DNA of 64,000 nt from Candidatus Bathyarchaeota archaeon (GTDB taxonomy: Archaea > Thermoproteota > Bathyarchaeia > Bathyarchaeales > Bathycorpusculaceae): contig OY970176.1 of the NCBI GenBank assembly GCA_963707955.1, positions 1,248,001-1,312,000 of the forward strand, given 5' to 3'. The notes beneath the pieces are model-generated. The model saw only the letters and a list, made by a program, of their open reading frames with translations, was not told the DNA's origin and ran no database searches. The stretch's first letter is position 1. Each line of letters starts with the position of its first letter. The position numbers and the translations under genes were made by a program. Below are positions 6,037 to 45,709 of this stretch, piece after piece.

Positions 6037-6385
6037 TTTGTTTCCCTTTTGGAAACTTATTTACTCTATACGTGAAGCCCCATCTATTTAAACACAGCGC
6101 AACTCGGTTCTGTGAAATCTTCGGTTGATGATTCATTCTTGAACGCCATTGAAGCAACTAGTGCAAGTTTGCCTAATCCCATCATTCAAGTCTTGGAGAG
6201 TGGACCAAACTATTCCACTTTTCCATTTAACCTGCTCTTAAAACACATTTGGGCGCGCTGGTCAGAAAAGGGAAATGGTCAGAACTGTGGGAGGTTTGTC
6301 TGCAGTACGATGATGAGATCTCCACTCAACTTCGGGTTAAGAGACGTGTCCATGGGCTGTTCTTAAGAATTTTTCAACGTGGGCT

Positions 6386-15279: not shown

Positions 15280-15433
15280 ACTCTAAATCAACTTGACGTG
15301 ATAAAAGGTTTATGAAAGAAACTTCCACCATCATCCTCTACAGTTTCTATTCACACTATCCATGATGCCGAACTAGGTGCGGCACTATTTTATATAGTCT
15401 AGTTTTGGTTCAAATTTAGGAGTAAACTTAGCT

Positions 15434-15724
15434 GTGTCAACAATGAAATTTTTGAAAACGGACCGAGGAGTAGTCCTGAATGTCTACGTTAAGCCAGACT
15501 CGAGAGAATTCAAAATTGAGGTAGAAGATGATGAACTTGTGGCGCATTGTAAAGAGTCTCCAGTAAAAGGCAAGGTTGATAAAGAGTTGATAAAGGAACT
15601 TTCAAAGATTTTCAAGAGGAAAGTTGAAATTATTTCTGGTTTTACTTCAAGGCAGAAGAAGATTCTGATTAGAGATGTCAGCTCAGAGGAAGTCAACCGT
15701 ATTCTTTCTAAATGTAAACACTAG
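15434..15724 (+). CDS. DUF167 (YggU/UPF0235) family protein
   Basis: LNVYVKPDS...SPVKGKVDKELIKELSK...ISGFTSRQKKILI. Confidence 0.88.
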   Translation: MSTMKFLKTDRGVVLNVYVKPDSREFKIEVEDDELVAHCKESPVKGKVDKELIKELSKIFKRKVEIISGFTSRQKKILIRDVSSEEVNRILSKCKH

Positions 15725-15867
15725 CGCGCTTATTCTCACTCACACTCCCTGTGCGTGTGCGCGTGTGTGCGTGCTGTAGGATAAAGCTTTACCCTTTTTT
15801 CTTTTCGCACCTAGCGCGCGCTTGAGTCGAAGCAAAACAGAAATCTATTGGCAGCGTAAGAATTGTC

Positions 15868-16245
15868 ATGGGGAGTTTTGAAATGAACAGACCAAGCAGA
15901 CTGTCTGACCAAACGGTCACGTTTGTCACGGACGGCAACTTTGCTATACATGTGACGGACTTGGGGAAAGCGGAGGATTTCTACGGCAATGTTTTGGGGT
16001 TTAAACTCTCGAAAAGAACGGATGAGCGGTTTGTCTATGATACGGGCAAAATCACCCTCTACGTAGTGAAGGACTAGAAGGTTATTCCGTTCATTCCAGC
16101 GCTCGAGGTCAGCAACTACGAGAAGGCAAAGCAGTATCTCATGAAAAATGGTTGTAGAATAATCAAAGAGTGGTCTGAAGATAGAGCACTTTACTTCGAA
16201 GACCTATTTGGCATCGTGATCGACATCGTTGAAAAATCGTCATAG
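15868..16245 (+). pseudogene. VOC/glyoxalase family gene with an in-frame TAG at 16075-16077
   Basis: AIHVTDLGKAEDFYGNVLGF before the stop; the same frame continues to ALYFEDLFGIVIDIVEKSS* after it. Confidence 0.8.
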
Positions 16246-16267
16246 AGCGCGCGCGTACACATAATGG

Positions 16268-16998
16268 TCATTGATTCAAGCCAAGCATGTCCAGTAGGTT
16301 TTTGATGTCAACTGCAATGTATGGCGAATAGCAACCTGCGTCTTGTCTCGGGGTCGGGTTGGTTATCAGTCCTTCTTTCATCATGAGACCGAGTGCTCCT
16401 TCAAAAATGAGGTGATATAGGGGGTTGAAGGCTTCTTCAAATGCAATCCCGTTCTTTGCGGGTGAAGTCTTGGCATAGACCTCCAACATCTCAGACTTTT
16501 CGGCCTCTAGAGACTCTGCAAACTGTCTCAGAATTAGCTCTGCGACTAGCTTCATTTTGGCCAGGTCGTCAGGGAAAAAGAAAGGTCTGTTGATTCTCCA
16601 CCTGTTGCATTTGAGGGCAACATACCCAAGCGTCAGCAACAAGGTCACCTCTGCCAGCAACCGAGCGTTGTCGCCGCCTGCTTTTGTCTTCAGTTCGCTT
16701 GTCGACAAATCCTCCTTTGAGAGAGCCTCCAAGATTCGGCCGATCTTCTCCATCTCTGCCTCTACGTCAGCTTGCTCAACCTGTTCTGCCCAGTGCGATG
16801 CTATGTCCGGAAAAGCCATCCTGAATCCTGCGGGAGGAAGCCTTCCATGAGTGCCAAACCAGTACTTGCCGAAACCCGAGTTATTTCCCCACATCCAACC
16901 CTCTTTAAGATTGAAGGAACCCGACTTAAGACCTGAAAACACGTACTTGCCTCCGCCGGGCATGTTTCTTCCGGCAGAAAGCAACTTCTTGGACTTCA
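16268..16998 (-). pseudogene. Hypothetical protein (wHTH-containing) whose 5' part is cut at the transposon left end
   Basis: The reading frame runs up to the inverted repeat at 16999 with no convincing native start. Confidence 0.6.
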
Positions 16999-17021
16999 GA
17001 TACTGTCCACTTAATCGGGAT
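16999..17021 (+). repeat. Left terminal inverted repeat GATACTGTCCACTTAATCGGGAT
   Basis: Exact reverse complement of 23569-23591; resembles IS6-family ends (G.CACTGT). Confidence 0.93.
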
Positions 17022-17079
17022 AGGGTTCTGTCAAGTCTTCGGTTGATACGAGCCCTTGTAAAAAATCGGTTGACGAAGA

Positions 17080-17598
17080 TTAGCCTTCCGAGATATGTTT
17101 CTTTATTTTGTCCCTCATTACCCCTTTTAGCTTACTCAAACGGTCCGTAATTTCAATATTTGCTTGGTCTTCTGGAGGAAGGTCCGCGAACCACTCTTCA
17201 TACTCGTCTTCCTCACCTAGGTCGGGGGGTTCTCCATATATCTCAATTTGTTTCTCCGTAAGGAAGGTGTCAATGTCGTCTATTTCCTTTTTCAATTCCT
17301 CTCTCAGTTTTTCAGGGAGGAAGAGTCCAGTACTGCCATCCAGAAAAACAGTAACGGCATTTCGAAAATCGGGAAAACTCTTGTAACCCTGTTTTAATAA
17401 TTCATCGAGCTTTACTAGGGCATCTTTTCTGTCCTCATGATACAGTTGCATTCTTGTAATTGTCAGACTTAGTTCTCGTTGAGTTTTAAGGCTCTTTTCA
17501 GAAAAGTAATGCGCTATGATTTGTGTAACGATTGCTATTACAACTCCAGAAATCAGCGGGAAAATATACAGGCTGTAATCGGACAAAAGCATTCCCAA
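17080..17598 (-). CDS. Hypothetical protein with one N-terminal transmembrane helix and an acidic helical domain (transposon cargo)
   Basis: 172-aa ORF, hydrophobic N-terminal segment, co-oriented with the other cargo genes. Confidence 0.7.
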   Translation of the reverse strand: MGMLLSDYSLYIFPLISGVVIAIVTQIIAHYFSEKSLKTQRELSLTITRMQLYHEDRKDALVKLDELLKQGYKSFPDFRNAVTVFLDGSTGLFLPEKLREELKKEIDDIDTFLTEKQIEIYGEPPDLGEEDEYEEWFADLPPEDQANIEITDRLSKLKGVMRDKIKKHISEG

Positions 17599-17659
17599 AA
17601 AAGTATGACTATCGTTTGGATATAACCGTATTGTTGCCTCGATATTGTAAACTTGTTTC

Positions 17660-19033
17660 TCATGGTTGGTTTTGATTTTGGTTTCGCAGTAGTTCCTTCA
17701 CTGTGATTGTTTTGATCTCAATGTTATCGTGTAGTCCCGCTCTCGCGACTTCGCCAAAAGCACCCTTGCCGAAACTGAAGGCCACGATTGTTCCCTTCTT
17801 CGCATTTCTTCTCCTGATTGCAGTCTCAAAATTGTCAACCACGTTTCTACCAATATCATCCGACTGCTTAACCTGAATGGGATCGCCTTCAAAGGTAAAA
17901 CCATCAATGCCCATGTCTGAACTTTTCCTTTGTGACACTCTACCGAAAAGCCTCTGAACAACCCAATTCTGAAACTCGAACGCTGGCAGTTTTCTCAGAT
18001 CCTCTTCAGTCATAGGCATGCCCATGACACTGGGCGACACATGCAATTTCCTAAATCTCTTCTCCATAAGTTTGCATGCTGTTGGAGAAACGTCTATTCC
18101 TGCCCATTGCCTTCCAAACTTATGAGCTACTACGATAGCTGTGCCACATCCACAAAAAGGGTCGAGAACAATATCCATCGCATTAGAAGAAGTTTTGATG
18201 ATTCGTTCTAAGAGAAGTTCAGGCTTTTGTGTGGGGAAACCGAAACTCTCTCTAGAAGTTGAAACAGGGTTCACGTCATCCCATAAGTCTTGAAATGGAA
18301 CGCCTTTCATTTCGTCCAGATACCTCTTGTATCTGGGGACGTTGCCTTTCTTTGTCTGGACGATTCGACCTTCTTTGTACAGCTTCTCCATCGTCTCTTT
18401 GCTATATCGCCAGTATCTTGTTACGCCTAAGAACTCATATCTTGGGTTTCCTTTCGCTGCTCCACCAGGCCCATCTATTGCGGTGAGCTGGTATCTTCTC
18501 CCTGTTTCATGTTCTACGTGTCCGTAGAACTTATCTTTTGATTCCTCAGTGAAAGGCAAGTATTGCTGATTCCAAGTGTAGTCTTTAGATTTGGCATAGA
18601 ACAGTATAACATCATGTATTCTACCATAGTGTTTCGCTCCCTGTTTCGCGTCACTGTGCTTTGCAACCTGTCTTTTCCACACAATCTCGTTTACGAAGTT
18701 AGTCTCTCCGAATAGCCTGTCCATTTCATACTTCAAATAATGCGAAGCGTGCCAATCGCAATGAAGATACATCGAGCCAGTCTTTTTGAGAACTCGATAA
18801 CATTGAGTAAGCCTTTCAACCATCCAAGCAACATAATAGTCTAAACCGCCTTTCCATCTGTCCTCGAAAGCTCTAAGCTCATATCCGTCTCCCCAGATGA
18901 TTTCGTAACGTCTGTTGGAAAAGAAAGGCGGATCAGCATAAATCAAATCGACAGATTCGTTCGGAAACTTGCTCAAAACATCCTTGCAATCGCCACAATA
19001 GATTGTGTTAGGTCTGAAATATGGAATAGTCAT
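17660..19033 (-). CDS. N6-adenine/N4-cytosine DNA methyltransferase (beta class) fused to a C-terminal Mrr-like restriction endonuclease domain
   Basis: LIYADPPF precedes PTQKP and VLDPFCGCGT; C-terminal FEFQNWV...DMGIDG...IQVKQ (D..QxK) nuclease motif. Confidence 0.9.
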   Translation of the reverse strand: MTIPYFRPNTIYCGDCKDVLSKFPNESVDLIYADPPFFSNRRYEIIWGDGYELRAFEDRWKGGLDYYVAWMVERLTQCYRVLKKTGSMYLHCDWHASHYLKYEMDRLFGETNFVNEIVWKRQVAKHSDAKQGAKHYGRIHDVILFYAKSKDYTWNQQYLPFTEESKDKFYGHVEHETGRRYQLTAIDGPGGAAKGNPRYEFLGVTRYWRYSKETMEKLYKEGRIVQTKKGNVPRYKRYLDEMKGVPFQDLWDDVNPVSTSRESFGFPTQKPELLLERIIKTSSNAMDIVLDPFCGCGTAIVVAHKFGRQWAGIDVSPTACKLMEKRFRKLHVSPSVMGMPMTEEDLRKLPAFEFQNWVVQRLFGRVSQRKSSDMGIDGFTFEGDPIQVKQSDDIGRNVVDNFETAIRRRNAKKGTIVAFSFGKGAFGEVARAGLHDNIEIKTITVKELLRNQNQNQP

Positions 19034-19095
19034 CTAGTTACCTTGAACTAGAATTAGTGCAACATCCTATTAACTCGTTTGCTGTTGTTTAATGG

Positions 19096-19290
19096 TTATT
19101 TTGCGAACTGTATGTCTCGATACTTGGTTTTTCCCACGTTTTTTTCGAGGTTTGCTTTAATCTGTTTTTCCCATTCGTCCTCTGTCAAGATTCCCTTTCG
19201 TTCAAGAACTTCAACGAGACTGGAAAGCATCATATCGAGACTATCAAGTTCCTCAGCAAGTTCTCTTGTTAGATTCTTTTTCTTGCTCAT
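19096..19290 (-). CDS. Small hypothetical protein, 64 aa
   Basis: ATGA overlap with the upstream CopG-like ORF; LVEVLERKGILTEDEW helical pattern. Confidence 0.7.
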   Translation of the reverse strand: MSKKKNLTRELAEELDSLDMMLSSLVEVLERKGILTEDEWEKQIKANLEKNVGKTKYRDIQFAK

Positions 19291-19442
19291 TGCTTTCCCT
19301 TCGTAGGTAAATATCCTTTCTCAGATAGAAAAGCTATGACTATAGTTCTTACTATCTCTGAATCACTTTCGCCGAAAGTGCCTTTCAGATTGTCCACGAT
19401 TTTCTTTATCTCATCTGGAAGACTTAACAAGATTCTTTTCAT
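19287..19442 (-). CDS. CopG/ribbon-helix-helix-like regulator, 51 aa, not in the ORF track
   Basis: Hand translation MKRILLSLPDEIKKIVDNLKGTFGESDSEIVRTIVIAFLSEKGYLPTKGKQ; ATGA overlaps at both ends. Confidence 0.8.
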   Translation of the reverse strand: MKRILLSLPDEIKKIVDNLKGTFGESDSEIVRTIVIAFLSEKGYLPTKGKQ

Positions 19443-20332
19443 TTAGCTACCACCTCTATCGGTTTTTCGTTCACTGTTCTATTCTCTCCACTCGTTGCCT
19501 TGAATTTGGTTGCTTCTTTTACTATTGTGTGCCAATCGTTCTTCATAGTTAATCCAGAGGCCTGAGCAGGAGTCATTCCAAGAGTCTGATGCTTTCGTAC
19601 ATAGTCATAGTGAACTGCCCAACCTTCTAGTAGTGTCCTTACTGTGTCTTCTCCTTTCAAACCTCGCGTTGGCCTCAAACGGTCTTTCAACGTGCCATGC
19701 AGTCTTTCAACAGCATTCTGATTATGAATCGCCCTTATTCCCACTCTTCTGATTAGCTCGGGTCTGCCTTCTTTCTTCATTGTATAGAAGACCTTGTTGA
19801 ATCCATCTATGTAAGCTGGCAAGCCATCACAGTAAATTGAAACTGGCTTTCTCTTAGCTACTCTGATGCTTTTCTCGAAAAGTGCTATCGCGTCTTCGGT
19901 TGTTCTTGAACCTGACAAGTGACCTGTAACCAGAAACTTTGTCTGATCATCGATGATTTCCCAGAACCACTTCTGAACACCCTTACACTTGATCGCGGTT
20001 TCATCAACGTGATAAATGCCTAGAAGATGTGGTGTTAAGGTTTCTACATACTCAGCGCACAGTTTTGAATATTTCATGATCCATTTCCAGATTGCAGACT
20101 TGCCTATCTGAATGCCAAAAATCTTTTGAAGCTGATTCTGAACCTTTCTGATGCTAAGTCCTTCGTAATACATGTCAATTGCCGTGGAAATGATTCGGGA
20201 CTCCACACGCATTTTTGGAAAGTCCGAACCTTCAACAAACTTGTGTCCACAAGAGCGACAAACGAACTGTTGCTTGCCCTTCACTTTGCCATCCTTAACG
20301 ACTTTCTCTGAGCCACAATACTTGCATGGCAT
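19439..20332 (-). CDS. IS6/IS240-like DDE transposase with an N-terminal zinc ribbon and HTH
   Basis: CKYCGS...CRSCG zinc ribbon; AIWKWI HTH; HVDET, YCDGLPAY and NAVERLHGTLKDR catalytic segments; probable start MPCKYC at 20332. Confidence 0.92.
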   Translation of the reverse strand: MPCKYCGSEKVVKDGKVKGKQQFVCRSCGHKFVEGSDFPKMRVESRIISTAIDMYYEGLSIRKVQNQLQKIFGIQIGKSAIWKWIMKYSKLCAEYVETLTPHLLGIYHVDETAIKCKGVQKWFWEIIDDQTKFLVTGHLSGSRTTEDAIALFEKSIRVAKRKPVSIYCDGLPAYIDGFNKVFYTMKKEGRPELIRRVGIRAIHNQNAVERLHGTLKDRLRPTRGLKGEDTVRTLLEGWAVHYDYVRKHQTLGMTPAQASGLTMKNDWHTIVKEATKFKATSGENRTVNEKPIEVVAK

Positions 20333-20341
20333 CGTTATATC

Positions 20342-20377
20342 ACCAGAGTCATATACAGTATATAACTGGTTTATAAG
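20342..20377 (-). promoter_or_regulatory. Putative transposase promoter (TATA box) with a palindromic operator
   Basis: CTTATAAA on the minus strand at 20370-20377; GTCATATAC-A-GTATATAAC near-palindrome at 20348-20366 between the TATA box and the ATG; similar half-site GTCATAGAC at 20408. Confidence 0.5.
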
Positions 20378-20436
20378 CTTTGCTCTTTTTGATTCTGTCG
20401 AGCCCGTGTCATAGACTGTCTTGAGCAAGTGAGGTG

Positions 20437-21675
20437 CTACACTACGTGTTGAAGTATTATTTCGGTATTTTGTTTCCTTTCAAGAAGCTGTGCTTTATCG
20501 TTTCTGTTCTTTAACGGATAGACACTGAAAGCTTCCTCAAAACTGTGGGCTTTTTTGAATTTCTTCACTAACCCCTTGTATGGTGGAAACGCTCCACCGT
20601 ACCCAAGTATTCGTCTTGCCTTGCCGATCAATTTCAAGTGGTAATCAGTCCATAATGGAGATATAAAACAGTTCTTCTCCAACGCATTCAGTGGTTCATA
20701 CCTCATTGGATATGACACACAGCCTAAATCTGCGATGTGCTTTATTCTTTCAAAAAATGTCGCGGGTATATCGCTATGATATTTTTTGTTGTAGAAATTG
20801 TATAGAGTATATATGAAGATTTTTCGTCTTCTTATACCGCTTTTCGAAAGAATATCTATAGCATTAGTGAGTGCTCTCTTCTCACCAATGTCGTCAAAAG
20901 CAGTTCGAATTAGGGGTGTTTTTAAATCAGCGATCATACGGGCTTTTTCATCATCAACCAGACGAGCATCAACGCCCTGATTGAAATCAACAGGCAATCC
21001 TATGTCCAGTAGTTCATTGAGTATTTTTTTCCAGTTTGACATTGCAAAGAAATTATTGTCCCATAAGATAATCCGCTTGTAATCTGGATAGATATAACGC
21101 TCAAGATCTTCCACAACTCCGTGGATCTTTCCTTCCAACTTTGGAACAATGCAATAAGGGCAACTTCGAATGCATCCTCTTGAAGTGAATAGGATTGTGC
21201 TGTCCCATTTTTCCCATTCCTTTACTTCTTTTAAGAGGTCATATGCTGGCAGGTAGCCATCTGCCTCCTTACAAAGACCGATATTAATATCTATGAATGG
21301 AAAAAAAGATCTAAGTCTACGCGACATTAACGAAGCATATATACCTCCAACCCGTATTTTTGCACCACTAAATTTGGTGTGATAGAATTTTATGGCTTCG
21401 TGGACTGGTTTCCAAGCATAAGTGAATAACGACGTGATTTCGATGCGATCTGGACTAAACTTCAAGTCTTCTTGAATATCACGCACGAGTTTTACTTGGT
21501 TCCCTCTGGAACGATGATATGAAGCAAGCTTCAATAAGCCTAATGGAGGGAATTTCGTGTAATATGCAGGTTCAACAAGCAGAACTTTCATAGGATAGGT
21601 AGTGCTTACGTTATTCTTAAAGTTTCCTATAAAATTGGAAAAAGGATCCAAATCCTTGAAACCGGAGGATCCCAT
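20437..21675 (-). CDS. Radical SAM protein with a B12-binding-like N-terminal domain (transposon cargo)
   Basis: TSRGCIRSCPYC (CxxxCxxC); PPLGLLKLASY, VGGIYASL, LWDNNFFA, DFNQGVDARL; alternative start MKVLLVEP near 21591. Confidence 0.88.
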   Translation of the reverse strand: MGSSGFKDLDPFSNFIGNFKNNVSTTYPMKVLLVEPAYYTKFPPLGLLKLASYHRSRGNQVKLVRDIQEDLKFSPDRIEITSLFTYAWKPVHEAIKFYHTKFSGAKIRVGGIYASLMSRRLRSFFPFIDINIGLCKEADGYLPAYDLLKEVKEWEKWDSTILFTSRGCIRSCPYCIVPKLEGKIHGVVEDLERYIYPDYKRIILWDNNFFAMSNWKKILNELLDIGLPVDFNQGVDARLVDDEKARMIADLKTPLIRTAFDDIGEKRALTNAIDILSKSGIRRRKIFIYTLYNFYNKKYHSDIPATFFERIKHIADLGCVSYPMRYEPLNALEKNCFISPLWTDYHLKLIGKARRILGYGGAFPPYKGLVKKFKKAHSFEEAFSVYPLKNRNDKAQLLERKQNTEIILQHVV

Positions 21676-23435
21676 TAGGTCTTGAGCTTAGACTTCTCTA
21701 TTAATCGGAGAATGAGATCTTGTGTCATATGAAAGTCTGTTAAGATGTCGATTTTTTCTTCTTTAGTCATCAATTCATAGAATGCGAAAGAAGGTTTTCC
21801 TTTTTCATGCTTTGAGGTGTTGACAAACAACTCATGGAGTGCATCAATCATAACTCCGAAGAGACGATCGCGATATTCCTCTGACAAAAGAAGCTTTGGA
21901 TTATCACCCTTTTGTACTTCTTTCCAGCCATAAGCTTTTTTGGATAAGTCGCATATTGAATCGAGTGTTGTCAAGCCTGTTTTTCGTTGAAGAAGTTCTT
22001 TCACTGGGTTCATTGCATCAATATCAAATTCCGTCTTTCCCTTCTTTGTGGTCTTCTCAAGATGCTTCTTCAAGTCAGGATGGGATGTTTTGATAAATTC
22101 ATTGAATCTATCCGTTTTTTCTTTGATGATGTCTGTGGGCTGTTCCTTTATTTTGTCTTGAACCGTTTTTTCCAGTGTTTTCAGAAAGGTTCTATTGGTC
22201 GCGGATTTCTTATTGATGACTTCTTTCATTCCTTGAAGTGCTTGTTCCGTTGGAAAACTTCGCTTTCGCTGCAACTTCTTTTTCAGATGTACGATTCTCT
22301 CATGTGCTGGCTTCACCTCACCAATCTCTATTTGTTTCTTTATTTGCTCGATTGGCCTGGTCACGATATTGTCTGATTGGTATTGATTCATCAATTGCAG
22401 TTGACCCACAAATTCGCCCACTTGTTGGTAGAACGGTTCGATTATCTCATTGTTTGCTTCGAAATTATTGCGGGGTGCATTTTCCTTTAGTGCGTCAAGG
22501 ATTATGTGAATTTCCCCATATTGCCATTGATTATAGTTTCCTGGATGCAGGTTTGAGACAAGGTTTTCATCTCCAATGGTGAACCCTTTTTTCTTGAAAC
22601 AGATTCCCCTATTTGGCGGATCCAGTTTACGGTTGGTTTTGCTTGAAAGAACCCATCCATATGCAACAGTTTCATTTTTGACAATGAATTTCTTCTCTAT
22701 GATTTTGTTGAAGAAAACGTTGTCGTTGTCTGGTGGACGAAAGATTTGTTGTTTCTCAAAAAAGATAGGCGTTTCTTGGATTTTGACATCATTTGCTGAA
22801 AGTTTCTTGGCAATCTCTTTTCCTAAAGTGAATTTCCCTGTATCGAAAGGAGCAGGAACAGTAGTGGAAAGATATTCTCTTACGGCTTTTTCTGTGAAAA
22901 TTGAACGTTGGTTCGGCAAAATGTCCTCAAGCCGAATCGTTGTGAATTGTGAGTTTTCAATGGATTCATCGCCACCTGTTTCTAACTCTTCTATATCTCC
23001 TGTCACGTCAGTTAACACTCTCGCAGCTGAAATATTGAGATTGTATTGTTGACGCAATTTATCAGCATCAATTTGGACTCGAAGTTTTGGGTGATTTTGT
23101 TTCTTAGTAATTATCACGATTCTTCGACAAGCAGGAATCCCGCTCCAAATTCCAATTCCTCTCCAACCAATCGCGCCAGGAGGTTTCTCGCTTATGCCGA
23201 GATAAAGTGCTTCCTCAAGTTTCCCCTTGTCCATTCCACACCCATTATCTTCGATAACCAAAACAGTTTGATTCTCAAAATATACATCGATTCTATTTGC
23301 CCCTGAATCAATACAATTCTGAACATACTCGCGCAGACAATTCAGATTTCCATCATAAAGCCCCGCTGTAATTGCCTCAATGAGTTTGGCCCCAAAAGAT
23401 TCATCGGTAAATTTAACCAAGGAAAACTCCCTCAA
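21675..23435 (-). CDS. GHKL (Hsp90/MORC-like, HATPase_c_3) ATPase with a helical C-terminal region (transposon cargo)
   Basis: LREYVQNCIDS N-box, IEDNGCGM G1 box, IGWRGIGIWSG G2 box; TAATG overlap with the radical SAM gene. Confidence 0.88.
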   Translation of the reverse strand: MREFSLVKFTDESFGAKLIEAITAGLYDGNLNCLREYVQNCIDSGANRIDVYFENQTVLVIEDNGCGMDKGKLEEALYLGISEKPPGAIGWRGIGIWSGIPACRRIVIITKKQNHPKLRVQIDADKLRQQYNLNISAARVLTDVTGDIEELETGGDESIENSQFTTIRLEDILPNQRSIFTEKAVREYLSTTVPAPFDTGKFTLGKEIAKKLSANDVKIQETPIFFEKQQIFRPPDNDNVFFNKIIEKKFIVKNETVAYGWVLSSKTNRKLDPPNRGICFKKKGFTIGDENLVSNLHPGNYNQWQYGEIHIILDALKENAPRNNFEANNEIIEPFYQQVGEFVGQLQLMNQYQSDNIVTRPIEQIKKQIEIGEVKPAHERIVHLKKKLQRKRSFPTEQALQGMKEVINKKSATNRTFLKTLEKTVQDKIKEQPTDIIKEKTDRFNEFIKTSHPDLKKHLEKTTKKGKTEFDIDAMNPVKELLQRKTGLTTLDSICDLSKKAYGWKEVQKGDNPKLLLSEEYRDRLFGVMIDALHELFVNTSKHEKGKPSFAFYELMTKEEKIDILTDFHMTQDLILRLIEKSKLKT

Positions 23436-23568
23436 TTAATCCTAATATGAACTGTTAGCCATTTAAATTCTTGTGTTATATCTTGCTTGAGTTTTTCCAT
23501 GACTTTTTGAGTTTAACGCCTTTTTCTTCAAACCAAAGCAACACATGGCTTTAGTACTTCACTATTCC

Positions 23569-23591
23569 ATCCCGATTAAGTGGACAGTATC
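23569..23591 (-). repeat. Right terminal inverted repeat ATCCCGATTAAGTGGACAGTATC
   Basis: Exact reverse complement of 16999-17021. Confidence 0.93.
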
Positions 23592-24316
23592 AGGTCCGAG
23601 GGGACTTGAAACCCACGGGGTGAATTTGTACTGTTTCCCCTTTTTTCTGTCGCCGTGTACATGCTTTAGTGTTTATGGCTCTGTCCTTATCATATTGGAG
23701 AAGCCATGACAGGCCTAACCTCTCAACCCAACCTTCTTGAAGATTTGCAGCGATCTAGAACTGTGAGTTCAAGCAGCCCCATCACTCTGGAACTGAATAT
23801 GTACCGCTTCCTCAATCATTTTCCCATTTTTGTAATTTAACCGAAGCACGCAGATGCTTTTGTTCTCCAGTCTCGCTGGGTTCCGGTTGCCGGTTTCTCC
23901 CGGGCTACCAAAAGCGCAAGCGTGAATTTATACTGAATTTCTTCCTTTTTTGGAAGCCTAGCCTTGAAGTGAGCTGGCCCCTATGCTCGGCAGGGGCTAG
24001 AGCATCAAGAAGATCTTGAGTCTCTTGCGCACCATACGTATCAACACTCATTTCTAATCACCATAAAGCTGTAATAGTCGCAAGAAACGAAAATTAGAAC
24101 AAGCGCGCTTTTTCAGAGCTGGGGACTTTCATCCTCACGAGAATTGGGACTCCCTACGATGAACGTCGCAACAAGGATGCGAGCCTGAACAATCCAAAAA
24201 GTGAAGGAAATACTGCGATAGAAAGGCTTAAGTCTGACCGGAGAAAAGCAGAACTTGAGGCGAGGATCATTCGACATTTCCGCGCTGGTTACATTCTGAT
24301 TCTGTTAACGCCATTC

Positions 24317-24745
24317 TTGTCCTTCGCCGTTATACTGGAACTAGGGAACACGCTGACTTTTAGCCAAAATTATCTTCTGCCCATTATGCTGACCACAGAG
24401 TTGAACGCTTCGATAGTGGCACTCTTGATAATCGGGATAGCCCTGTACATGTATGGGTACCTGAGGCGAGAGGCAACAGATGCCGAAGCAAAAGTGACTT
24501 TGCTGATCGGCTTCTTTCTCATTCTGTGGGGAGTGTTCACTTACCTTATTGCTTCAGGGTTTTACAATGACGCAATTGTTGGGAGCATGAACCCTGGGGT
24601 GAGGGCACTCACAATGTGGGACTACATGGAATACTGGACGTGGGAGCTGAAAGGAATCTTAGGTATAGGCACAGGGCTTCTATTAGCCGTCACATCACTC
24701 ACGAAAATGTACGCAGCGCGAGCAAGAGACAAAAGCAGTAATTGA
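24317..24745 (+). CDS. Hypothetical membrane protein, about three transmembrane helices; start uncertain
   Basis: Three hydrophobic segments in a 142-aa ORF. Confidence 0.6.
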   Translation: MSFAVILELGNTLTFSQNYLLPIMLTTELNASIVALLIIGIALYMYGYLRREATDAEAKVTLLIGFFLILWGVFTYLIASGFYNDAIVGSMNPGVRALTMWDYMEYWTWELKGILGIGTGLLLAVTSLTKMYAARARDKSSN

Positions 24746-27921: not shown

Positions 27922-28295
27922 AAAGCAAAACCAAGAAACCCAAACCACATTCCCCTTTTTTCTGTCCCAGTGTACATGCCTTAACGTCCACGGCTTTGTC
28001 CTTATCACATAGCGGGCGCGGCTAGGTGTCGGTCGTGTCAAAAGATAGCAAATCTTGGGCTTCCATCAAATCCCGAACGGAGCAGTTTTTCCATAAACTG
28101 TAGAGGCTACACGCACTCAAATGCGCGCGCTATCTTTGGTCTAGACCAAACTTGTTTTTATAGCGCTTATGGAAGGGCGAAGGATGGATGTCATGCTGCG
28201 TGTTTCCGAGTGCTTAGTTGAGAGGGTTGTTGAGGGCATCATCGTGGATTGCATTGAGAAAACCCTTACAATCCTCTTAGAGTGTGTTGTTGAGT

Positions 28296-38146: not shown

Positions 38147-38314
38147 TCCTCTCGAAGTTTCATAAGTATCCCTCTTCACTCAGGAAGCTTATCACCATAG
38201 TCCTGACAACTTCAGAATCGCTTTCTCCAAGTCTTCCTTCATTAGTCAGATTTCTATAGAAGATTCAAGTTTTCCAATCATGTCCAATCACGCACCATTA
38301 CCGTGGGCTTGATT

Positions 38315-45086: not shown

Positions 45087-45709
45087 GCTCTAAACAAGGT
45101 CCGAGTTATTTGTTTTCCGATGACTTTAAGGTTTTCTGCAAAACGATACTGTTAAGTCTTTTAACCTAATCGACCTGACCAAAAGATGGTCTTAGCCCAT
45201 GACAACTAGCAGAATAATGGCAATTAAGAAGAAGAAGACAGTTGCATCGTATATCCATTTCTTGGCGAAACGCGCTAAGCAAAGCGCAGACGTTACAAGC
45301 GTTAACATGAAAAACAAATGCGCAGCAACAATCAGATAGCACCAAATCACCTGTCATCGCGTACGAATAGACGGATAAAAATCGAGACATACTGGAGAAC
45401 CATAAATACAAACAACATGACGAGCGAAACCACCAGAATCCACGCAACATTTCTTTCAGACATTTCCAAGGAGCCACCCTCATCTGTTGACTGTCTCCAT
45501 GCGCATAAAAAACCGTCTGCCTAGGACTCGGCAGCGCGCACGGCGCCGCAAGCTGTTACACAACACCGTACGCCTCGCAAACTGAAACACCATTCAGGAA
45601 AAGGATCGTTCAAAACTAAGAGAAGTTCCTAATTGTCTTAACCTGTCCACGAATGAAAAACGGATTCAGCACTTGTAAAGAAAAGTGACGATGTGAAACA
45701 GAAATGCCA

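Follow-up and report, generated by a model that had tools for sequence, protein, structure and literature searches.

Does the DNA at positions 16999 to 23591 of the window, by which we mean the whole 64-kb stretch analysed here (64,000 nucleotides of contig OY970176.1, from a Candidatus Bathyarchaeota archaeon, uncultured and living in sediment), move as a single unit, and to which kind of transposon would it then belong? A preliminary description of this DNA had proposed a unit transposon with a single IS6-like transposase and passenger genes on both sides of it. From the data presented below, it is very probable that 16999-23591 is a 6,593-bp unit transposon, or transporter insertion sequence (IS), of an IS6-like family of Bathyarchaeia, in which the cargo lies on both sides of a central core. 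The proposal finds its support in seven relatives with the same core, six of which are flanked by a 9-bp target duplication. Coordinates are positions in the window unless prefixed G000, which stands for the window's own genome (a single contig of 2,346,764 bases); the other G-numbers, such as G271:C6, are genome and contig labels of Bathyarchaeia, L040 is a metagenome contig and P0002 a protein homologue.

The interval is bounded by an exact 23-nucleotide (nt) inverted repeat pair, and the identity between both ends breaks off exactly after 23 nt, left and right; the span between the outer bases of the repeats is 6,593 bp. In the whole genome, searched with up to three mismatches, the pair represents the sole two copies of the 23-mer; at the same threshold no match was obtained in any of 100 dinucleotide-preserving shuffles, nor a third copy in the window. 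The GC content is 40.4% within 16999-23591 versus 48.8% and 48.7% in the adjoining 5 kb on each side and 47.9% in the genome, and the low-GC block stops at the repeats. Seven open reading frames (ORFs), all on the minus strand, are enclosed. The exact repeats, the AT-richness relative to the flanks and the seven co-oriented genes of the preliminary description are, in this way, all borne out. The features of the element, with protein lengths in amino acids (aa), are:

16999..17021, plus strand: terminal inverted repeat, end downstream of the transposase gene (exact 23-nt inverted repeat; same sequence with 0-3 mismatches, as element end or solo end, in 5 other Bathyarchaeia genomes)
17080..17598, minus strand: cargo, 172-aa protein with one N-terminal hydrophobic helix (family and paralogue searches)
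17660..19033, minus strand: cargo, fusion of a DNA methyltransferase (N6_N4_Mtase) with Mrr_cat, 457 aa (Pfam, PADLOC)
19096..19290, minus strand: core, 64-aa ORF beside the transposase (50-64% identical copies after the transposase in seven related elements)
19287..19442, minus strand: core, 51-aa ribbon-helix-helix-like ORF (42-67% identical copies after the transposase in seven related elements)
19439..20428, minus strand: transposase, 329 aa, N-terminal CxxC..CxxC zinc ribbon and IS6-like DDE domain (PF13610, NCBIfam)
20437..21675, minus strand: cargo, B12-binding-type radical SAM enzyme, 412 aa (motif, phrog, atlas clusters)
21675..23435, minus strand: cargo, GHKL (MutL/MORC-like) ATPase, HATPase_c_3, 586 aa (PF13589 at 6.4e-13)
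23569..23591, minus strand: terminal inverted repeat, lying upstream of the GHKL gene (reverse complement of 16999-17021 without a mismatch)

Inverted repeats placed closely around the transposase alone would have spoken against this extent of the element. Among the 25 longest inverted pairs besides the 23-nt pair (71-95% complementary), none stands at both sides of 19096-20428, and a search for end-like motifs inside the element returned nothing except at 17024. No tRNA gene or Rfam family lies at or near the ends, the single Rfam line being a chance-level microRNA match (E 0.79). Both junctions are bridged by assembled contigs of three runs from one study, the left one in X1, X2 and X3 and the right one in X1 and X2; one of these runs may be the source of the window. 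An element-skipping joint, a circle junction or an empty site is not listed in the assembled contigs of four runs of one study, a kind of data from which rare variants are dropped. Behind 21638, upstream of the point where the radical-SAM protein probably starts, an additional A is found in the short-read contigs of three runs, and the assembly may hold a homopolymer error there; behind 23616, these contigs disagree with one another by a single inserted base. Within the right-flank membrane-protein gene 24317-24745, the 12 nt at 24429-24440 repeat the ten inner bases of the left repeat and the two that follow it. This copy may be due to chance; it was considered as a trace of an older junction, with nothing further in its favour.

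The repeats are taken as transposon ends because ends of the same type bound elements with 9-bp duplications elsewhere. The comparison set consists of 11 elements of 1.2-8.0 kb from Bathyarchaeia genomes, the window element included, with both ends in hand and ends of this type. A 9-bp direct target duplication flanks nine of the 11 (eight exact, one with one mismatch), and is lacking in the window element and in G016:C44. The core order transposase, 51-aa ORF, 64-aa ORF is shared by eight of them, with ends 2.9-8.0 kb apart and differing flanking cargo. Seven of these eight are relatives that were found by following the transposase, and not the end sequence, through the own genome and its relatives: they encode a transposase 50-73% identical to that of the window, followed by homologues of the 51-aa and 64-aa proteins, and their ends are perfect or near-perfect 23-26-nt inverted repeats that open with the same few bases. 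The elements other than that of the window are:

G001:C21, 2,864 bp: 9-bp duplication
Own-genome paralogue near 2.03 Mb, about 3.09 kb: 9-bp duplication
G016:C44, 4,083 bp: no duplication
G008:C13, 5,244 bp: 9-bp duplication with one mismatch
G271:C6, 5,928 bp: 9-bp duplication, perfect 24-nt ends
G001:C2, 6,861 bp: 9-bp duplication
G003:C89, 7,988 bp: 9-bp duplication
G109:C10, 1,167 bp, non-autonomous (without transposase): 9-bp duplication, bounded by the window 23-mer (0-3 mismatches)
G000 2251984-2253519, 1,536 bp, own genome, non-autonomous (without transposase): exact 9-bp duplication, NYN/LOTUS protein
G000 2007253-2008763, 1,511 bp, own genome, non-autonomous (without transposase): exact 9-bp duplication, archaeal AAA ATPase

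The own-genome paralogue, whose transposase is 72% identical, matches the window at the DNA level over 19162-20327 only, that is, over the transposase from its likely ATG and the two small ORFs, and its flanking genes are unrelated to the cargo of the window element. A truncated copy of the core, with the C-terminus of a transposase and homologues of the 51-aa and 64-aa ORFs, was also noticed at G000 1576208-1576667. Besides bounding G109:C10, the window 23-mer (0-3 mismatches) occurs singly in G001:C7 and G086:C56 and twice in G121; the copy in G121:C1, to which the right repeat and its three inner bases give a 26-nt match, is considered a solo end because housekeeping genes follow it. The search for the repeat that the preliminary description had suggested thus returned another paired end as well as solo ends, with only the two known copies in the own genome. 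The window itself contains a solo end of the 9-bp family at 45145-45167, a near-match to the ends of G016:C44 that has no partner in the window, and, 7 kb from it, a fragment resembling the 51-aa core ORF (73% over 26 residues) at 38163-38240.

The transposase was then compared with domain and family models. Its homologues begin at residue 33, and the true start is likely the ATG at 20332. DDE_Tnp_IS240 (PF13610) matches residues 139-273 with 73 bits against a cutoff of 27. Residues C35, C38, C57, C60, D142, D201 and E241, among others, are invariant across eight aligned transposases, with an open frame. In IS6 the DDE triad is followed by K/R, and in this protein K248 stands seven residues past E241; the assignment of D142/D201/E241 as the DDE triad was made by position within the Pfam match and not by alignment to a reference IS6 protein. 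The NCBIfam IS6 model NF033587 narrowly misses its cutoff (121.1 bits versus 125). The second-best NCBIfam model is that of IS1, NF033558, with 70.1 bits against 100 over residues 35-219, and the IS1/IS1595 N-terminal zinc-binding domain NF050000 passes at residues 35-66 (40.2 bits against 28). When plasmids were searched by tblastn, 10 of the 12 matches listed carried an annotation, in all cases IS6 family transposase, at 24-30% identity. None of the solved structures matches the transposase, and no relative was found in the viral contigs searched with it. The 51-aa ORF, described previously as CopG-like, gives a match of this kind, to RHH_1, which is weak and below the cutoff (E 0.013). The three-gene core, made of the zinc-ribbon DDE transposase and the 51-aa and 64-aa proteins, would act on the two remote 23-nt ends, and everything between them would move as one piece.

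At the left end, the element interrupts a host gene. The features of the two borders are:

16268..16998, minus strand: host gene remnant, C-terminal ~245 codons of a ~391-aa winged-helix protein, cut at 16998/16999 (homologue alignment)
23593..23695, plus strand: right flank, repeated intergenic host sequence, external to the element, no duplicate of the left flank (82-88% copies at four other places of the genome)

Full-length homologues of the cut gene (381-394 aa), which present a TrmB/ArsR-like winged-helix N-terminus, align to ORF 16268-16984 from residue 147 on only; one homologue, the 391-aa protein P0002, is 91% identical. An intact allele on L040 is 93% identical to window 16223-16998 and then diverges into the 5' half of the gene. 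As L040 is collinear to 16998 and no further, the left boundary of the foreign DNA falls at the outer base of the left repeat. The homologue alignment and the intact allele confirm that the left end cuts a host gene, as had been stated. The search for an empty site of that gene succeeded in part: the allele on L040 is intact, but no syntenic empty site was found among the relatives, since the left-flank gene is in a syntenic place in none of 30 relatives searched at the DNA level or 40 searched with P0002 (one distant match, G025, 40% identical). G008 shares the right-flank membrane-protein gene only (24189-24714), and L040 has nothing in common with the own genome besides the cut gene.

The window copy does not present a target duplication, the left flank GGACTTCA and the right flank AGGTCCGA not being duplicates, and neither residues 1-146 of the cut gene nor bases 1-927 of L040 have a match anywhere in the single-contig own genome. 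Considering that the duplication is absent and that the 5' half of the cut gene has been lost from the genome, we infer an insertion followed by a rearrangement. The element would have inserted, and one flank would then have been lost via an adjacent deletion, as in replicative intramolecular transposition of the IS6 type; according to the accessible text of the IS6 review (PMC7986276), this process gives adjacent rearrangements without duplication. Such a deletion after insertion would account together for the absent duplication, the intact ends and the half gene. Recombination with a second copy that was lost afterwards would look the same. In the right flank, the homology to the other copies of the intergenic repeat begins at 23593; these copies lie at window 27950-28010 and at G000 1000209, 1006084 and 2124525, and the repeat, located downstream of genes, is composed of a short GC stem, a conserved loop and a T-rich run, with no Rfam match in the stretch searched. 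On the left side, the region 15382-15795, with a 96-aa ORF at 15434-15724, recurs at G000 595415-595665 (86%) and in four relatives (83-91%), and may be a repeated or mobile unit.

A second end, of another type, is present within the element:

17024..17073, plus strand: relic end of a second, canonical-looking IS6-type element (Y-type end), terminal motif and subterminal repeat (~50-nt matches)

Starting 2 nt inside the left repeat, it has ~50-nt matches of 80-94% both in the own genome and in relatives; of the own-genome copies, the closest two agree with it at 39 and 45 of 52 positions. No inverted partner was found in the window at up to six mismatches, and this end type is solo here and in eight other places examined. 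Canonical-looking IS6-type ends were mostly seen alone in the own genome and relatives, with no partner within 6-8 kb, for instance at 17024-17073, 6106-6129, G000 383850, 1824944 and 2247329, and two inverted IS6-type ends stand 26.5 kb apart at G000 49221-75725 without a target duplication. Two elements of the own genome have ends related to that at 17024 and exact 8-bp duplications: E1 (G000 992796-996017, 3,222 bp), with a methyltransferase-Mrr fusion and a broken transposase, and E2 (G000 1715704-1719962, 4,259 bp), a cargo element with a single transposase. Their transposases are 34-39% identical to that of the window, and the 51-aa/64-aa pair was not found in them by tblastn. The 7,988-bp family member of G003:C89 contains, 39 nt in from its end, a complete element of 2,421 bp that has Y-type ends and an 8-bp duplication with one mismatch. 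These two independent cases suggest that canonical-type elements may be drawn to ends like their own. Attraction to ends that resemble their own is a known behaviour of other IS families. In the window, another IS6-type element would have been inserted next to the left end and would have lost its own second end afterwards. It would be the origin of the leftmost ~2 kb of cargo, or at the minimum of the 50-nt end at 17024; the methylase and the 172-aa gene may have arrived with this nested Y-type element.

The cargo was examined by family, paralogue and structure searches. The methyltransferase-Mrr fusion is matched by PF01555 (5.3e-46), PF04471 (5.3e-05) and the PADLOC Type II MTase model (2.1e-64), and has a 48% identical paralogue in E1. 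The radical-SAM protein, which probably starts at Met29 (21591), contains a CxxxCxxC motif, falls in atlas clusters named B12-binding radical SAM and matches the viral protein family phrog_9298 (2.6e-63); Marinitoga camini virus 1 encodes a 45% identical homologue next to HerA- and NurA-like genes. The GHKL protein belongs to a family of ~580-600-aa proteins spread across archaea and bacteria, the named members of which are just called ATP-binding, histidine kinase/HSP90-like ATPase, or hypothetical. Its profile matches MutL/MORC/Hsp90 chains among the solved structures over residues ~10-114 only, with the MutL/MORC chains covering residues ~27-110, no known family was found for its C-terminal ~450 residues, and PADLOC returned for it only a weak MzaB match on the N-terminal 100 residues (1.2e-08). 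The radical-SAM protein and the small ORFs match nothing in PADLOC, the 172-aa protein has no Pfam, PADLOC, NCBIfam or PHROG family and no paralogue in the own genome, and the cargo as a complete set corresponds to none of the defence systems modelled by PADLOC.

In the same way, the cargo of the sister elements was compared. G008:C13 carries a type I/IIG-like methylase with a specificity subunit, G001:C2 a large N6_N4 methylase and a subtilase, and G003:C89 a Dam-type methylase and a SacI-type endonuclease, while the remaining autonomous members carry proteins without a Pfam family. With the window element counted, DNA methylase or restriction domains are found in four of the eight autonomous elements. 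In G271:C6, which comes from another taxonomic family of the class, adjacent GHKL (60% identical) and radical-SAM (72%) genes are situated inside an element with a 9-bp duplication; its transposase is 51% identical, the pair is oppositely oriented relative to the transposase in comparison with the window, and a 107-aa remnant similar to the N-terminus of the methylase lies at the far end. Of the genomes of the class, 301 were sampled: two of them (the own genome and G271) have the GHKL protein, both times within such transposons, 12 have the radical-SAM protein, and seven have a transposase of this clade (E 1e-94 or better). The same cargo in a relative devoid of repeats or transposase would have argued against a transposon, and the sole relative that has the GHKL and radical-SAM genes, G271:C6, has them in a transposon of the same family. 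The domain matches, together with phrog_9298 and its virus homologue and with the restriction-modification cargo of the sister elements, point to a cargo directed at nucleic acid, putatively for modification or for a restriction-type defence or counter-defence. The earlier view of an unusual vehicle for defence or modification genes has to be changed in one respect: the element is not a single oddity but one member of a family, some members of which do carry clear restriction-modification genes.

Several observations weigh against the interpretation of the interval as one IS6-like transposon with a nucleic-acid-directed cargo. The window copy is without a target duplication, its insertion as one unit being deduced from its relatives; it is a single copy, with no close DNA copy (above ~71% identity) in 30 relatives; the second end at 17024 makes the interval a mosaic, part of which may be younger; the function of the cargo is derived from domain matches; and the transposase score remains under the IS6 cutoff, with a 9-bp duplication and 23-nt ends compared with the 8 bp and ~14 nt of the review. 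The absent duplication, together with flanks that come from unrelated host places, would also be expected if the interval were not one unit and two independent solo ends, or short non-autonomous elements, bracketed a foreign patch with an unrelated transposase, and solo ends of this type are indeed common (G001, G086, twice in G121, and window 45145). Nevertheless, the two ends are identical at 23 of 23 nt, face outward correctly and are the sole copies in the genome, the other seven members of the enclosed transposase's clade are all bounded by ends of this type, the block of low GC stops where the repeats are, and the same GHKL and radical-SAM cargo recurs in the bounded, duplication-flanked element of G271, all of which makes a chance bracket highly improbable. 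Inverted repeats around a block of genes could also be the crossover sites of an invertible segment, i.e. a site-specific inversion switch, and nothing else speaks in favour of it; neither the interval nor its immediate surroundings encode a serine or tyrosine recombinase, elsewhere the repeats have their match in transposon ends with target duplications, and the outer base of the left repeat abuts the truncated gene exactly, so that the chances of an inversion switch are next to nil.

If the interval is a unit transposon, its family remains to be placed. Passengers and one transposase stand between one pair of ends, and the unit movement of relatives is attested by the duplications in six of seven, as is expected of a transporter IS or unit transposon. 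The accessible text of the IS6 review gives for most IS6 members a length of 700-890 bp (up to 1.8 kb), ends of ~14 nt and 8-bp duplications (PMC7986276). In IS6 the transposase is the only gene, while the window element measures 6,593 bp with seven ORFs and has no 8-bp duplication, and the duplication of its family, seen in nine of 11 elements, is of 9 bp. As the duplication length, the size with the gene content, and the curated score all depart from the definition of IS6, we file the family as IS6-like and not as IS6, a non-canonical position based on sequence features. The preliminary assignment of an IS6-like transposase therefore stands for the DDE_Tnp_IS240 domain, and fails for the NCBIfam cutoff, the 8-bp duplication and the size. 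The first ~8 positions of the 23-nt ends resemble the ends of the canonical-looking IS6-type elements of the genome.

As an alternative, the family could belong within the IS1 superfamily as one of its branches, or stand on its own, which would leave the anatomy of the element as it is and change its label, possibly with an IS1-type mechanism rather than obligatory cointegrates. IS1 elements have 8-9-bp duplications and ends of about 23 nt, and some of the single-ORF archaeal IS1 relatives are several kb long and contain passenger genes. The rank of IS1 as second-best NCBIfam model, the zinc domain that passes, the IS6 model just under its cutoff and the 9-bp duplication in place of 8 bp are consistent with such a placement. 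However, the IS1 model is farther below its own cutoff than the IS6 model, the best Pfam match is DDE_Tnp_IS240 with no IS1 DDE family listed, the annotated plasmid matches are all IS6, a two-ORF frameshift arrangement is missing, and own-genome transposases that are 35% identical have canonical-looking IS6 ends and 8-bp duplications. We therefore consider this alternative unlikely. A broader reading joins several of these points. The elements would form a separate family between IS6 and IS1, combining a catalytic core like that of IS6 with a zinc ribbon like that of IS1, and marked by a 9-bp duplication, ends of 23 nt and the two accessory ORFs; in Bathyarchaeia, this family would be a general vehicle for modules of restriction-modification and others directed at nucleic acid. 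The GHKL ATPase and the B12 radical SAM enzyme would together make up a new mobile module for DNA modification or defence, and the ends of the family would attract canonical IS6-type elements, from which mosaics such as the present one would result. Taken as a whole, this reading is tentative, and we are doubtful that all of it holds.

The reading as an IS6-like unit transposon has a more general meaning. It is as composites of two copies that IS6-type elements are known to move genes, and here an archaeal family would move several kb of exchangeable cargo with one transposase, in a lineage that is abundant in sediments. The window copy is also a natural example of the effect on a host, a regulator gene having been cut in two and one half deleted with its neighbourhood. 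The accessible part of a 2025 survey reports no detectable CRISPR-cas loci in 23 complete Bathyarchaeota genomes. Considering this report and the methylase or restriction genes in half of the autonomous members examined, restriction-type modules carried by transposons may be one of the principal ways in which Bathyarchaeia gain and exchange defence. No paper describing this transposon family was found in a search that covered sources other than ISfinder and subscription journals, and among the matches listed for passenger genes in IS1 or IS1595 elements, none is, as far as their accessible text indicates, on archaea.

Compared with known systems, the element shares with IS6/IS26 the IS240/IS6-type DDE domain and, in its relatives, a direct duplication, and its perfect ends are short, at 23 nt against ~14 nt. 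It also resembles them in the duplication-less rearrangement next to the element and in a zinc-finger N-terminal extension, the accessible text of the IS6 review describing in clade h, from Clostridia, transposases of 340-350 aa with such an extension (PMC7986276). The same text has cargo moved between two directly repeated IS6 copies (PMC7986276), whereas the window element encodes a single transposase, 24-30% identical to annotated IS6 transposases, together with two additional conserved small ORFs, and its ends are separated by 6.6 kb. The single member with a passenger gene named in that 2021 text is ISDsp3 ('tIS'), from a bacterium, with one hypothetical gene (PMC7986276). As portrayed there, ISDsp3 is similar in having one transposase and a passenger between one end pair, and different from the window element, in which four cargo genes, ~5 kb in total, flank the core left and right and which belongs to an archaeal family with exchangeable cargo. 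E1 and E2 also combine a single IS240-type transposase and passengers between one end pair, and E1 has the 48% identical methyltransferase-Mrr fusion, but their 8-bp duplications, other type of end sequence and 34-39% identical transposases set them apart. The single-ORF archaeal subgroup of IS1 and the transporter IS of IS1595 have in common with the element the IS1/IS1595-type N-terminal zinc ribbon; unlike IS1, its catalytic domain scores better as IS6 (121 versus 70 bits, as profile scores and not comparisons with reference sequences). Unit transposons of the Tn3 type are alike in their one transposase, terminal inverted repeats and internal cargo, which includes defence genes. The duplication of Tn3-type elements is of 5 bp, in contrast with the 9 bp of the present family, and the window element is without a Tn3-type transposase, resolvase or res site.

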